Below, piece by piece: positions 1,425-60,336 of a DNA stretch of 64,000 nucleotides (position 1 is the first letter of the stretch; every line of letters begins with the position of its first letter). Made by a program: the position numbers and the translations under genes. The notes beneath the pieces were generated by a model. The model was given only the letters and a program-made list of their open reading frames with translations. It did not search any database and was not told the origin of the DNA. The stretch is from Phycisphaerales bacterium UBA2396 (GTDB lineage: Bacteria; Planctomycetota; Phycisphaerae; Phycisphaerales; UBA1924): the NCBI GenBank assembly GCA_002343325.1, contig DDSG01000029.1:4718-68717 (forward strand). Reading direction: 5' to 3'.

Positions 1425-1558
1425 TTTTGTTGGTGCGTGGTGGAGTCGTCGTGCGTTGGGGACTATTCTGTCCCAGTTTGCGCCGAACGGGCGGGTCGTG
1501 GTGACGTAAACCCGCGCCGTCGCGCTTGCGTGCCGCACCTTCCTCGCCGGGGATTCCC

Positions 1559-5095
<3,537 letters not shown>

Positions 5096-5161
5096 GGAAG
5101 GTCGTCGGCTTCGAGAAATCCCCCAGTCTGACGCGCGGGTCCGGGCAACCTTCGGGCAGTC

Positions 5162-5190
5162 TTGACACGGGCTGCCGACGCGGTACGCTG
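5162..5190 (+). promoter_or_regulatory. sigma70-like promoter (-35 TTGACA, 16-17 nt spacer, -10 TACGCT) driving the riboswitch leader
   Basis: TTGACA at 5162-5167 and TACGCT at 5184-5189, immediately 5' of the riboswitch P1 region. Confidence 0.4.
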
Positions 5191-5191
5191 C

Positions 5192-5410
5192 GGGTGCCGA
5201 AGGTTCCCGGGGCGGAGTTCGCCGCCGGGATGAAAAGGGAAGCGTGGTGAGGCCGAGCATGGCCGATTCCACCGCGGACGCGCCGCCGTAACGGGTGTGG
5301 ACGCAACCCCACGAGGGCACTTCAGAGCGAAGTGCCGCACCACTGGGCACGCCACAGGGCGAGCCTGGGAAGGTGGGGGTTGCCGAGCCCGGAGCCGGAA
5401 GACCTGCCTG
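5192..5410 (+). promoter_or_regulatory. cobalamin (adenosylcobalamin/B12) riboswitch
   Basis: GGUGCC start. GAAAAGGGAAGCGUGGUGAG, GACGCGCCGCCGUAACGG and CCACUG...GGGAAGGUG elements and the B12 box GCCGGAAGACCUGCC are all present. Order and spacing closely parallel the E. coli btuB leader. Confidence 0.85.
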
Positions 5411-5634
5411 ACGCCGCGCGTGCCGGAGCACGCGTCGAGCCGAGCGGCCCTCGCGATCTGGCACCCCGTGGTGCCGGAAAGGGGCAGTCGGGCAGCGGTG
5501 CCGGTTCCCCTCGGCACGCGCACCCACTCCACCCCGATTCCCGATTGGCCCCGGCGTACCGGTCAGGGGCCTGCCTGCGCGCGAGCGGGCACGGAACGTC
5601 GGTCGCGTGCGCGCGCCCGAGGATTGGTTTGGTC

Positions 5635-6408
5635 ATGCTTCGAATCGCTGTCGTGGTTTCTTTGGGCCTGGCTGGCTCGACGCTTGGGGCGGATCCGTTT
5701 GCCGACCGAGTTGTCTCGTATGTTGCGGGCGAAGGCGTCGCTGCGGGGTACGACGACCCCACGACCGCCATCGGCTCGCCCACACGCGTCAACTACTTCG
5801 GCGACACCGTCACCCCCTTCAACACGCCTTACTGGAGCACCGACGTGGTCAGCGTCGGCCGCGGCGGCTCGCTCGTCGTCGCCTTCGACGAAGCGATCCT
5901 CGACAACCCCCTCAATCCCTTCGGCATCGACCTGCTCGTTTTCGGCAACCAGTTCTTCATCACCGACTCCAACGGCCGGCTCACCGGGCTCTTCGACGAG
6001 GGCGGCCAGATCGAGCTGTCGGCCGATGGCAACACCTGGATCGCCGTCACCGGGCTCACCGCCGAGGGTGGATTCCCCACGCTCGGCTTCGTCGGCATCA
6101 CCGATCTGCAGTTCGGCAGCGACCAGGGCACAGGGCCCACCGACTTCACCAAGCCCGTCAACCCGCAGCTCAACTGGATCGGCATGACCAGAGAAGAACT
6201 CGCGGCGGCCTACGACGGCTCAGGCGGCGGTCTCGGGATCGACATCGGTGCGTACGGGCTCGGCAGTGTGAGCTATGTGCGCATCTCCAACGCGATCGAC
6301 GCGGTCGGCATCCCGGAGATCGACGGCTTCGCCGCCGTCACCCCAGTGCCGGCACCCGCGGCGATCCTCCCCTTGGCGGCGTGGTTCATGCGCCGCCGTT
6401 CTCGATAG
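5635..6408 (+). CDS. secreted protein with PEP-CTERM-type C-terminal sorting signal (riboswitch-controlled)
   Basis: Signal peptide MLRIAVVVSLGLAGSTLGA. C-terminus TPVPAPAAILPLAAWFMRRRSR (VPAP motif, TM helix, Arg cluster). No recognisable catalytic domain. Start chosen at the internal Met of the 5332 ORF, since the upstream part overlaps the riboswitch. Confidence 0.75.
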   Translation: MLRIAVVVSLGLAGSTLGADPFADRVVSYVAGEGVAAGYDDPTTAIGSPTRVNYFGDTVTPFNTPYWSTDVVSVGRGGSLVVAFDEAILDNPLNPFGIDLLVFGNQFFITDSNGRLTGLFDEGGQIELSADGNTWIAVTGLTAEGGFPTLGFVGITDLQFGSDQGTGPTDFTKPVNPQLNWIGMTREELAAAYDGSGGGLGIDIGAYGLGSVSYVRISNAIDAVGIPEIDGFAAVTPVPAPAAILPLAAWFMRRRSR

Positions 6409-6600
6409 CCGCTTCGACGCGGGCTGTTCGTGCTCGTGCCCATGGCGCGGGGAGAGGTGCGGCGGGTCGTGGTCGCCCTGCTGGTTGGAGAGAGACGTCC
6501 AACGGCACAGAACCAGACGACGCCGCCCTCCCCCTTCGCGGGGAATTGACCGAGAGATTGACGAGGGGTGTTTGCCCCATCCGTTCGGAAGGAAGAAGCG

Positions 6601-6855
6601 ATGCCCGTGACCCGTTGCGTGTGCAAGGAAGTGCCGCTGGAACATGTCGCGAGAGAAGCACGCGCAATGCGTGCGCGGGGTTTGCCTGTGTCGCTCGCCG
6701 AACTCTGCGATCGCACGCTCGCGGGCACGGGTTGTGGGACGTGCAGGCCCTATATAGCGCGAGCCGCGATCACGGGCGAATCGATCCAACCTGTGATGAG
6801 CCCAGCAGACAGCGAGGTCTGGATTCGTCGCCTGTCGGCCGTGGCACATGCATAA
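6601..6855 (+). CDS. BFD-like [2Fe-2S]-binding domain protein
   Basis: MPVTRCVCKEV...GTGCGTCRPYI gives the C-x-C...C-x2-C pattern of bacterioferritin-associated-ferredoxin-like domains. Good RBS GGAAGGAAG upstream of the ATG. Confidence 0.7.
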   Translation: MPVTRCVCKEVPLEHVAREARAMRARGLPVSLAELCDRTLAGTGCGTCRPYIARAAITGESIQPVMSPADSEVWIRRLSAVAHA

Positions 6856-6931: not shown

Positions 6932-7255
6932 GTGCCCGGGGACCATGAACAACAGGCTGTGACGAAGTGCGTCTGCTTCGACGTGACGTTTGAGGCGTTG
7001 CGTTCGCTGTACTACTCGCTGCCCGAATCGCTGCGAACGATCGGCACGCTGCATTCGCGTACCGGCTGTGGCGGTCGGTGCGGACTGTGCGTGCCGTACA
7101 TCCAGGTGGCGATCCGCAGGCAAGTCGACACGCTGCCCGTGATGTGGACGGAGGACTTCCGATCCGAGGGCGTTCATCCCGGCGCGATCCGTCGGCTGGA
7201 AGAGACGATCAAGGAACTGATGGCGGAGTTGTCACAGCAGCCTCAGCCGCGGTGA
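6932..7255 (+). CDS. BFD-like [2Fe-2S]-binding domain protein (paralog of the preceding gene)
   Basis: VTKCVCFDV...RTGCGGRCGLCVPYI has the same cysteine pattern. GTG start, 77 bp after the previous gene. Confidence 0.65.
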   Translation: MPGDHEQQAVTKCVCFDVTFEALRSLYYSLPESLRTIGTLHSRTGCGGRCGLCVPYIQVAIRRQVDTLPVMWTEDFRSEGVHPGAIRRLEETIKELMAELSQQPQPR

Positions 7256-7357: not shown

Positions 7358-11692
<4,335 letters not shown>

Positions 11693-11782: not shown

Positions 11783-15628
<3,846 letters not shown>

Positions 15629-15904
15629 GCTTGCCCTCGCCAGAAACGATGCATGCCGCCGGCGGAGAGAACTCCGCCGCGGTCGATGCAAACCGTGTCG
15701 TCAGATCGTTCGAAGTGTCACGCCCGCTGCCGTACCGAGTCAGTGGTGCTTGCCCAGGATCGCCGCCGCTGATTCGTTCGCCTGCGGGTACGGAAGGCCG
15801 CCCCAATCGGCAGAACCCACCAGTCTAAGCACCCCCGCGAGCGGAATCGACAACAATTCTTGAACTTTTCGGCAAAGCACGTGCCACTTCGGACCGAGTC
15901 CCGC

Positions 15905-37482: not shown

Positions 37483-38376
37483 TTACTGACCGACGCGGGG
37501 GTTGTTGACCCAACCCCACTTGACCGCCCCGAAGCGGTACAAGCGGTACCAATCCTGCTTCGTGCCCTTCATGTTGATGTACAGGTGGTTCGCGTTGAAA
37601 TCGCGGGCCGCATCCCCGGGGGCCACTTCCCGCGGCCCGGTCGGTGCCTTGAACAGATACACCGTGTTGTCCAGGTTCGCCACGTGCCCGCCCTTGCTGT
37701 GCCGCCGCGTCACCTGGTCATAGTTCCCCCACAGCCCGTCGACGTACGTGTCGTTGTACACCGGCGTGCTCTCCTCCACGAAGATCGGCAGCCCCGGCAT
37801 CGGCACAAGCCGGTTCACCACCTGCACGTTCGTCAACCGGATCACTCCCTCCAGCGTCCCGTCCGGCGGCAGATACGCCACCTGCGGCTTGATGTAGTTC
37901 CTCGCTCCCTCCAACTCACCCGGCATCGTGTAGTCGAACAGAATCCCCACGTCCGAGTTCCACATGTTGTTGCTGTTGGCCGAGTAGTTGCCCCGGTTCC
38001 GCTTGTTCGTCGGACACTCCGCGATCTGTGGCACGTTCGCCGCGTACTGGAACGCCCATCCCGGAGTATCACGCCGCGGATCATTCGGAGCGGCCCGATC
38101 CTCGATCCGCGCCCACCAAGCGTTGCCCGACCAGTTCGCCGTGTTGCGGACCCCGCCGTTGGGCATCCGCGGCGCAATGATCCACACCTGTTCCTTGTAG
38201 TCGTTCGCGTAGAACAGCGACGTCCACGACAACTCGCGGATGTTGCTCAGGCACTTCACCTCGCGAGCAATCTCCCTCGCCTTTCCCAGCGCGGGCAGCA
38301 GCAGCCCCACCAGCATCGCCACGATCGCGATCACCACCAGCAGCTCGATCAACGTGAACGCGCTTCGACGAACCAT
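37483..38376 (-). CDS. DUF1559 (H-X9-DG) protein with prepilin-type N-terminal cleavage/methylation domain
   Basis: [35 protein letters not shown] is a type IV pilin-like signal. The C-terminal [15 protein letters not shown] fits the H-X9-DG motif. Abundant family in Planctomycetota. Confidence 0.85.
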
Positions 38377-38564
38377 CACCGGCCTCCTCGCGCCCACTCA
38401 CCCCGGCCCGAACGGCACGCCGAGAACTCGACGCTCGAACCCGCTCGGGCCATCCACCCCCGCACTATACCGATTCCTCATCCCTCCACAACACCCGCAT
38501 CCCCCTAGACTTCCCTTCGAACCGCCTCCGCAGGCCCCGTTGGTCCCCACGAACGCCCTCCACC

Positions 38565-59733: not shown

Positions 59734-60336
59734 TTACCCCACCGTCCGGTTCTTCCCGGGAACCCAGAGTACATCCCCCTTGCCACCGCCGTTCGCCACC
59801 CGCGACAGCACAAACAACAGGTCGCTCAGCCGGTTCAGATACCGGATCGCCTCCGCGTTCGTCTCCGTCGGCTCAAGCCGCAACAACGTCACGCTCCGAC
59901 GCTCCGCCCGCCGAACCACCGTCCGCGCCACATGCAGCGACGCCGCCGACGCCGTACCCCCAGGCAGCACGAACGACGTCAACGCCGACAGCCCCTCGTT
60001 GTACCGGTCGATCGCTCGCTCCAGCCGCTCCGTCTGCGCCGCAACCACCCGCAACGCCGCCCCGGGCTTCTCCCCCGGTTCGAGCGGCGTCGCCAGGTCC
60101 GCCCCCAGATCAAAAAGATCCTGCTGGATCCCCGACAGCAGCGCATCGATCTCCCCCCGCTCCGCCATCTCCGACCCGCGCACCGCCAGCACCGCCACCC
60201 CGATCGCACAATTCGCCTCGTCCACGCTCCCGTACGCTTCCACGCGCGCCGAGTCCTTCGACGCTCGCTGACCGCCCACCAGCCCCGTCGTCCCATCGTC
60301 CCCGGTGCGCGTATAGATCTTGTTCAGCTTGACCAT
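59734..60336 (-). CDS. pduO: ATP:cob(I)alamin adenosyltransferase, PduO type
   Basis: MVKLNKIYTRTGDDGTTGLVGGQRASKDSARVEAYGSVDEANCAIG... canonical PduO/MMAB N-terminus. 200 aa. Confidence 0.85.
   Translation of the reverse strand: MVKLNKIYTRTGDDGTTGLVGGQRASKDSARVEAYGSVDEANCAIGVAVLAVRGSEMAERGEIDALLSGIQQDLFDLGADLATPLEPGEKPGAALRVVAAQTERLERAIDRYNEGLSALTSFVLPGGTASAASLHVARTVVRRAERRSVTLLRLEPTETNAEAIRYLNRLSDLLFVLSRVANGGGKGDVLWVPGKNRTVG

Follow-up and report, generated by a model that had tools for sequence, protein, structure and literature searches.

Most bacteria need vitamin B12 without making it, and the systems by which they capture it shape microbial communities. The dedicated surface B12 binders described so far (BtuG, BtuH and BtuJ) come mainly from gut Bacteroidota. 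BtuH2 (BT_1956; 7BIZ) of Bacteroides thetaiotaomicron is a surface lipoprotein that binds B12 through a C-terminal globular domain, and the same domain of ∼270 amino acids follows the propeller of BtuG1 (BT_1490; 8BLW chain B) (PMC8941943). BtuH has been reported only in Bacteroidota and three Firmicutes (PMC8941943; PMC13616437), and a September 2026 review still treats it as a Bacteroidota protein with these three exceptions (PMC13616437). Here we describe a locus of the planctomycete Phycisphaerales bacterium UBA2396, found in a stretch of 64,000 nucleotides (nt) of contig DDSG01000029.1 (positions 4,718 to 68,717; hereafter the window, in whose numbering its features are given). A cobalamin riboswitch precedes a gene for a 257-amino-acid exported protein, an arrangement conserved among relatives, and the product has the fold of BtuH domains and is homologous to them at the profile level. 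The best overall explanation, which we hold with moderate confidence, is that this gene encodes a B12-repressed, BtuH-like corrinoid-capture protein of the cell surface.

The cobalamin riboswitch (RF00174) was the sole Rfam match returned by cmscan across the 64-kb window (5201-5409, plus strand), at 56.5 bits and thus above the gathering score of 31.5 (E = 2.3e-11). The match spans positions 18-173 of the 189 in the model, P1 lying outside the scored part. The B12 box AGCCGGAAGACCUGCC is aligned to model positions 157-173, and the GGGAAG, GGUG, CCACUG and GGGAAGG blocks are aligned as well, in agreement with an earlier note on this DNA that had read such a riboswitch from the letters alone. 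An nhmmer profile of 12 Rfam-confirmed homologous aptamers widens the element to 5184-5410. The aptamer lies 225 nt 5′ of the ATG at 5635, on the same strand as the gene (5635-6408, stop included), and the intervening leader or expression platform (5410-5634) includes a GAGGA Shine-Dalgarno sequence at 5619-5623. We regard it as nearly certain that this RNA is a cobalamin riboswitch controlling the gene. The leader is ∼95% identical to that of locus L163, whose protein is 82% identical to the window protein. Its conservation in the window, L163 and L165 without any terminator-like feature suggests an unusual conserved expression platform, for which Rho-dependent termination and translational occlusion are each possible mechanisms.

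The earlier note had claimed a perfect TTGACA promoter upstream of the riboswitch. The -35 hexamer is present on the plus strand at 5162-5167, and a candidate -10 hexamer, TACGCT, follows after a 16-nt spacer (5184-5189, plus strand), but a consensus promoter scan called no full promoter at the locus because this best -10 matches TATAAT at only 3/6 positions. Comparison with two close relatives shows both hexamers conserved: TTGACA is kept in L163 despite diverged flanks, TACGCT is kept in both L163 and L165, and in L163 divergence has affected the spacer and the upstream flank. Hexamers that persist amid a diverged spacer and flank are what a real promoter should leave behind, and at the level of sequence this supports one here.

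In nearly all cobalamin riboswitches, bound cobalamin turns the downstream gene off, and the known regulons comprise B12 synthesis, B12 transport and B12-independent isozymes. The window shares with these classical regulons (btuB, btuFCD, cob/cbi, metE and nrdJ-independent isozymes) the same RNA element in the same 5′ leader position. It differs in its product, which, as had been claimed, belongs to none of those classes and appears to be a stand-alone exported protein with a binding domain.

The link between riboswitch and gene extends far beyond this genome. Homologs of the window protein number more than 431 at 90% clustering, and the family comprises 2099 clusters at 50% identity (E ≤ 1e-3), nearly all of them unnamed. 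When one genome per species was scanned, relatives turned up in 319 genomes, mostly of Phycisphaerae and other Planctomycetota. All locus counts given here rest on the best 80 loci of that scan, which comprise 48 Phycisphaerae-type, 15 unclassified Planctomycetota, 7 Pirellulales-type, 3 Isosphaeraceae, 2 Planctomycetaceae, 2 Omnitrophota and 2 Myxococcota/Deltaproteobacteria-type loci and 1 unclassified locus. L013 and L037 have no upstream DNA and were left out, which leaves 78 informative loci.

A first Rfam check found RF00174 upstream of the homolog and on its strand in 11 of 11 loci, and the nhmmer aptamer profile gave a same-strand upstream match in 73 of the 80. Weak or missed nhmmer cases were confirmed by Rfam in L019, L021, L042, L044, L059, L068 and L077. 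With the nhmmer and Rfam checks combined, a same-strand cobalamin riboswitch is present in 73 of the 78 informative loci, spanning Phycisphaerae, Pirellulales, Isosphaeraceae and Myxococcota-type metagenome-assembled genomes (MAGs), which bears out the expectation that orthologs would also follow B12 riboswitches. A genome typically has just a handful of cobalamin riboswitches. Because so many loci share the arrangement and such riboswitches are so few per genome, it is not a coincidence. Five of the 78 loci have no Rfam-confirmed riboswitch upstream (L026, L039, L048, L052 and L056, the last with a weak nhmmer match only); these members may have another mode of regulation, or they may be paralogs that serve a different role. 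L048 and L052 are two copies of the family in one Omnitrophota MAG (JAMOOT01), both without an Rfam-detectable riboswitch.

The protein itself has zero matches in Pfam or NCBIfam, even at E ≤ 10, and to that extent the statement of the earlier note that it has no recognisable domain stands. It gives way to profile comparison and structural modelling, which both point to a BtuH-type jelly roll at about residues 20-235 (5692-6339, plus strand). The AlphaFold2 model, made from a 33-sequence alignment, has a mean predicted local distance difference test score (pLDDT) of 89.9 and a predicted template modelling score (pTM) of 0.85. The Foldseek comparison that had been proposed as a check placed BtuG1 (8blw_B) at the top as the sole PDB match at E ≤ 1e-3, and the two best structural matches are both BtuH domains (8BLW chain B and 7BIZ). 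As modelled, the structure appears closer to the B12-binding surface proteins of Bacteroides than to anything else in the PDB. A search of a viral fold library with the same model was uninformative.

Sequence profiles lead to the same domain. We used a narrow family profile of 33 members, a broader one of 78 members, and a 14-member BtuH-domain alignment made of BtuG1-type and single-domain BtuH-type genes from gut metagenomes together with the BtuH2 domain from the PDB alignment. Against the whole PDB (hmmsearch), the broad profile matched residues 426-514 of 8blw_B at E = 2.4e-4; the narrow profile, and phmmer, returned noise only (FCP17, Rbg1). Profile-profile alignment by hhalign of the broad family with the BtuH domains gave a probability of 97.4% (E = 1.5e-11 over 128 columns), pairing window residues 18-153 with BtuH2 residues 322-444, and the narrow profile gave 93%. 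Sequence profiles reached no PDB entries other than BtuH domains, and the hhalign controls stood at 2.4% for the family against BtuJ/DUF4465 and 0.3% for BtuH against BtuJ. A permissive or global alignment also pairs C-terminal strands (VSYVRIS with IDFIKIQ, PEIDGF with STEVFSF), and the motifs SxGxGGxLxVxF, DLLVFGNxF and EGGxIEVSxDG are common to the family and BtuH. The window protein is very probably a remote homolog of the BtuH domain, and the relation is one of homology, not mere analogy. This homology is visible at the profile level only: unlike the described BtuH proteins, whose homologs were defined by BLAST, the window family is undetectable by pairwise BLAST or phmmer and would fall short of the published threshold (E ≤ 0.03, PMC8941943).

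The part of the BtuH2 ligand site that persists in the family can be specified. B12 is contacted in BtuH2 by Q333, N399, F401, H476, Y510, W511, W577 and L578, with Asn399 touching the phosphate and Phe401 the lower ligand, and ConSurf locates the conserved surface of BtuH where the pocket lies close to the phosphate (PMC8941943). The 7BIZ chain index plus 100 gives the native BtuH2 numbering, as checked on all eight published contact residues (PMC8941943). Asn399 and Phe401 fall in the confident part of the alignment, where they match N105 and F107 of the family motif DLLVFGNxF; N105 is invariant in the narrow family and at least 90% conserved in the broad one, and F107 is the majority residue. 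Asp393 and Glu406, invariant in BtuH domains, align with D99 and E122. This conservation of the Asp/Asn/Glu site fits the published ConSurf picture of a conserved phosphate-side pocket, and judging from the alignments the family keeps no part of the BtuH2 site beyond its nucleotide-loop/phosphate region. Three invariant motifs specific to the family (FPTLG, TDFTxPVxP and YxGSGGGxGxD) lie in the half that corresponds to the one bearing the BtuH2 corrin contacts. The protein probably binds corrinoids at the cell surface, a property that we infer with good support rather than one that has been demonstrated.

Like BtuH, the window protein appears to be secreted and attached to the envelope, in its case by a predicted tail, and both are found in cobalamin-riboswitch-controlled loci. 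The signal peptide (about residues 1-19, MLRIAVVVSLGLAGSTLGA; 5635-5691, plus strand) is apparent from the sequence, from a low-pLDDT N-terminal helix in the model, and from the hydrophobic N-termini that align with it in homologs. It has no cysteine and is therefore not a lipoprotein signal; the lipobox used to recognise BtuH is absent. Whereas BtuH is a lipoprotein, the window protein ends in a PEP-CTERM-like C-terminal tail, VPAPAAILPLAAWFMRRRSR (6340-6405, plus strand), read as VPAP, a hydrophobic helix (residues 241-256 in the model) and RRRSR. The Pfam PEP-CTERM model PF07589 misses the window protein but picks out 27 of 78 relatives, at the corresponding C-terminal position, and also a Myxococcota-type member in L044 (E = 4.1e-5). 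The tail of the window protein seems best described as a degenerate PEP-CTERM-like anchor. The anchor varies among the 78 members of the broad profile: 27 have PEP-CTERM, 6 a dockerin and 2 an EF-hand tail. Family representatives also include multidomain proteins of up to 1948 amino acids in which the BtuH-like domain is embedded. In L009, a single long open reading frame (ORF, 5080-6741) carries a Pfam-positive PEP-CTERM motif at residues 258-280 with the BtuH-like domain in frame after it; read-through of two tandem PEP-CTERM genes could account for it, as could an artefact of assembly or annotation.

In the mechanism that we propose, a sigma-70-type promoter (TTGACA, 5162) would give rise to a transcript beginning with the cobalamin riboswitch. 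By the rule for this riboswitch class, bound cobalamin would switch the gene off, and scarcity of B12 would allow the 257-amino-acid protein to be made. The Sec signal peptide would export it, and the hydrophobic and basic PEP-CTERM-like tail would hold it at the cell envelope, presumably at the surface. There the BtuH-like domain would capture cobalamin or related corrinoids through the conserved Asp/Asn/Glu site that matches the nucleotide-loop-phosphate pocket of BtuH2, and the captured corrinoids would be handed on for uptake by a route that cannot be recognised within the window.

Several observations weigh against a BtuH-like corrinoid-capture protein. The confident hhalign region is limited to the domain's N-terminal half. 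Within the ligand site, Gln333 of BtuH2 aligns with G38, a variable position in the family, and the residues that bond the corrin ring through hydrogen bonds (His476, Tyr510, Trp511 and Trp577) have no conserved counterparts, nor does Leu578; the last five fall in the poorly aligned half, where the window domain is ∼55 residues shorter than BtuH. A pairwise phmmer search of the PDB with the protein shows no similarity to BtuH, and the fold of the model also resembles carbohydrate-binding modules. The tail of the window protein is matched neither by PF07589 nor by NCBIfam. A terminator scan found no intrinsic terminator in the leader (5410-5634), and the leader folds no more stably than shuffled sequence (z = -0.12). 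Among the ∼35 window ORFs scanned (64 kb only), there was no match to an exosortase family, no BtuB, BtuF or BtuCD or any other transporter, and no B12-dependent enzyme.

The resemblance to carbohydrate-binding modules leads to one alternative, in which the protein would be a lectin or adhesin of the surface with a jelly roll of the CBM32 or discoidin kind and a glycan ligand, placed under B12 control indirectly, for instance so that the cell attaches to algae or bacteria that produce B12 when the vitamin runs short. We consider this improbable: both of the top structural matches are BtuH domains that bind B12 and these are the sole PDB entries reached by sequence profile, the family conserves the Asn/Phe pair of the BtuH2 nucleotide-loop site and adjoins a riboswitch-controlled TonB-dependent receptor in L044, and the regulons known for this riboswitch class are the B12-related ones named above. 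The partial conservation of the site bears instead on the nature of the ligand. Only its phosphate/nucleotide-loop part is retained, and the invariant Gly/Asp-rich family motifs (GSGGGxGxD, TDFTxPVxP) have no counterpart in BtuH, as might be expected if the B12-related role were something other than binding of the finished cofactor, such as the binding, for salvage, of cobalt, a lower-ligand precursor or cobinamide. Positive evidence for any alternative ligand is lacking, however, and the conserved Asn contacts the phosphate, a group absent from cobalt and free bases although present in some intermediates. Of the roles considered here, this one seems the least credible.

It is also conceivable, if unlikely, that the protein binds corrinoids without feeding any uptake and serves outside the cell as a store or shield, keeping B12 from competitors or holding on to what the organism itself makes. 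The riboswitch unit of the window clade, which has no transporter or partner, is what one would expect of such a store, and one report proposes that BtuJ1 of Bacteroides acts as a reservoir of the vitamin outside the cell (10.1101/2025.07.01.662609). Against this, an off-switch suits scavenging in times of scarcity more than storage in times of plenty, and elsewhere the gene is encoded together with envelope proteins or beside a TonB-dependent receptor. Corrinoid capture for uptake, in the manner of BtuH, accordingly remains the explanation that we prefer.

BtuG, to which the earlier note had likened the role of the protein, is a seven-bladed β-propeller lipoprotein (DUF5074) that shares with the window protein a proposed function in B12 capture at the surface and a riboswitch-controlled locus. 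The analogy held insofar as the model matches the B12-binding surface proteins of Bacteroides, but the resemblance is to the BtuH jelly roll and not to the BtuG propeller: the window protein is modelled as a jelly roll and has no PF16819 match. The window family shares with BtuH2 and the C-terminal domain of BtuG1 the motifs of the nucleotide-loop site, in which Asn399/Phe401 correspond to N105/F107, and differs from BtuH in being centred on the Planctomycetota. In size the closest comparison is a 280-amino-acid single-domain BtuH-type lipoprotein (L085, 1360-2202) encoded ∼2.5 kb upstream of btuG1 in a B. thetaiotaomicron-type locus. This lipoprotein is probably BtuH1/BT_1488 and indicates that the domain can be a stand-alone unit.

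BtuJ/DUF4465 proteins (PF14717) are likewise secreted jelly-roll B12 binders with representatives in many phyla, among them a tested protein of a Phycisphaerae species (10.1101/2025.08.21.671476). Membership of the window family in this group was rejected, as PF14717 matched 0 of 78 members, the hhalign probability was the 2.4% given above, and the conserved GTPAYF loop motif is absent. Judged by sequence, the family is neither BtuG nor BtuJ/DUF4465. Full-text literature searches retrieved no paper in which cobalamin riboswitches are connected with Planctomycetota or Phycisphaerae, with PEP-CTERM or with DUF1559.

The BtuH domain is here extended to a large environmental family, present in 319 species-level genomes and ∼2100 clusters at 50% identity, with a different anchor, different partners and almost universal riboswitch control. 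It provides a named and testable candidate for B12 acquisition by Planctomycetota.

The partners were found by clustering the same-strand neighbours of the homologs in the 80 loci and scanning cluster representatives with Pfam. A β-propeller of the BamB/PQQ (pyrroloquinoline quinone) type, ∼550 amino acids long and with a dockerin-like C-terminus, starts at most ∼70 nt from the stop codon of the homolog in 25 of the 80 loci (for example L018 6786-8354, L006 6877-8415 and L055 6749-8437). A propeller gene directly 3′ of a BtuH-like gene recalls the fused BtuG1. We rejected the propeller as BtuG-like at the sequence level (hhalign 0.4%), its PDB matches being BamB and PQQ dehydrogenases, and the parallel with the propeller-BtuH fusion would be an analogy at most. 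The window has no propeller gene and no homolog of this one.

More widespread, in 59 of the 80 loci, is a DUF1559 protein with a prepilin-like N-terminal methylation motif encoded in the same riboswitch unit (for example L021 3598-4791, L018 8293-9195 and L009 6738-7505). Its gene lies downstream of the homolog in Phycisphaerae and, in Pirellulales, heads the genes that follow the riboswitch; the riboswitch of Lacipirellula limnantheis I41 (L021) is followed by the genes for DUF1559, a dockerin protein, the homolog and a methyltransferase, in that order. DUF1559 prepilin-like proteins, whose function is unknown and which are hugely expanded in planctomycetes, are in this way tied to a nutrient-regulated operon.

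In two loci, both from Myxococcota/Deltaproteobacteria-type MAGs, cobalamin riboswitches stand back to back, at 5472-5657 (minus strand) and 5730-5954 (plus strand) in L044 and at 5474-5657 (minus) and 5757-5946 (plus) in L059. One of the pair in L044 precedes a TonB-dependent receptor (3405-5444, minus strand) and the other precedes the PEP-CTERM homolog. Adjacency to such a receptor was seen solely in Myxococcota-type loci (genes scanned in L044).

We tentatively propose a riboswitch-controlled module for corrinoid acquisition that would be proper to Planctomycetota and some Myxococcota-type lineages, built around a PEP-CTERM-anchored BtuH-like binder that would act, in most lineages, with BamB-type propeller-dockerin and DUF1559 proteins and not with BtuB. 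These partners of the relatives, and an operon without BtuB in the window, set the family apart from BtuH. The module is a doubtful extension of the binder itself; if real, it would amount to a new design of B12 uptake at the outer envelope and would give a first functional handle on the very large DUF1559 family of planctomycetes.

The riboswitch unit of the window consists of the BtuH-like gene alone. Upstream, carB (1526-5095, plus strand) ends just before the promoter. Downstream, two small ORFs resemble BFD-like [2Fe-2S] proteins (6601-6855 and 6932-7255, both on the plus strand; PF04324, E = 4.2e-6 and 9e-6), the first of them found in the same order in L163, L164 and L165. A gap of 192 nt separates it from the BtuH-like gene, with which it may or may not share the riboswitch transcript. 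They are followed by rpoC (7358-11692, minus strand), which converges on these plus-strand genes, and by rpoB (11783-15691, minus strand). The order DUF1275, carB, BtuH-like gene, BFD-like gene or genes, rpoC is kept on the contigs that encode the 97%- and 82%-identical proteins, and the stand-alone arrangement is therefore stable in the clade of the window.

Farther away and unlinked, a PduO-type cobalamin adenosyltransferase is encoded at 59734-60336 (minus strand; PF01923, E = 1.3e-61), as the earlier note had recognised, and its presence shows that cobalamin is handled by this organism. A protein with a prepilin-type N-terminal methylation motif, weakly like the DUF1559 partners seen elsewhere, is encoded at 37483-38397 (minus strand), unlinked to the riboswitch. 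The remainder of the window is made of housekeeping genes, among them those for PhoU and a class II aminoacyl-tRNA synthetase of the Asp/Lys/Asn type, and purC, mfd, miaA, glmS, ffh, icd and recJ.

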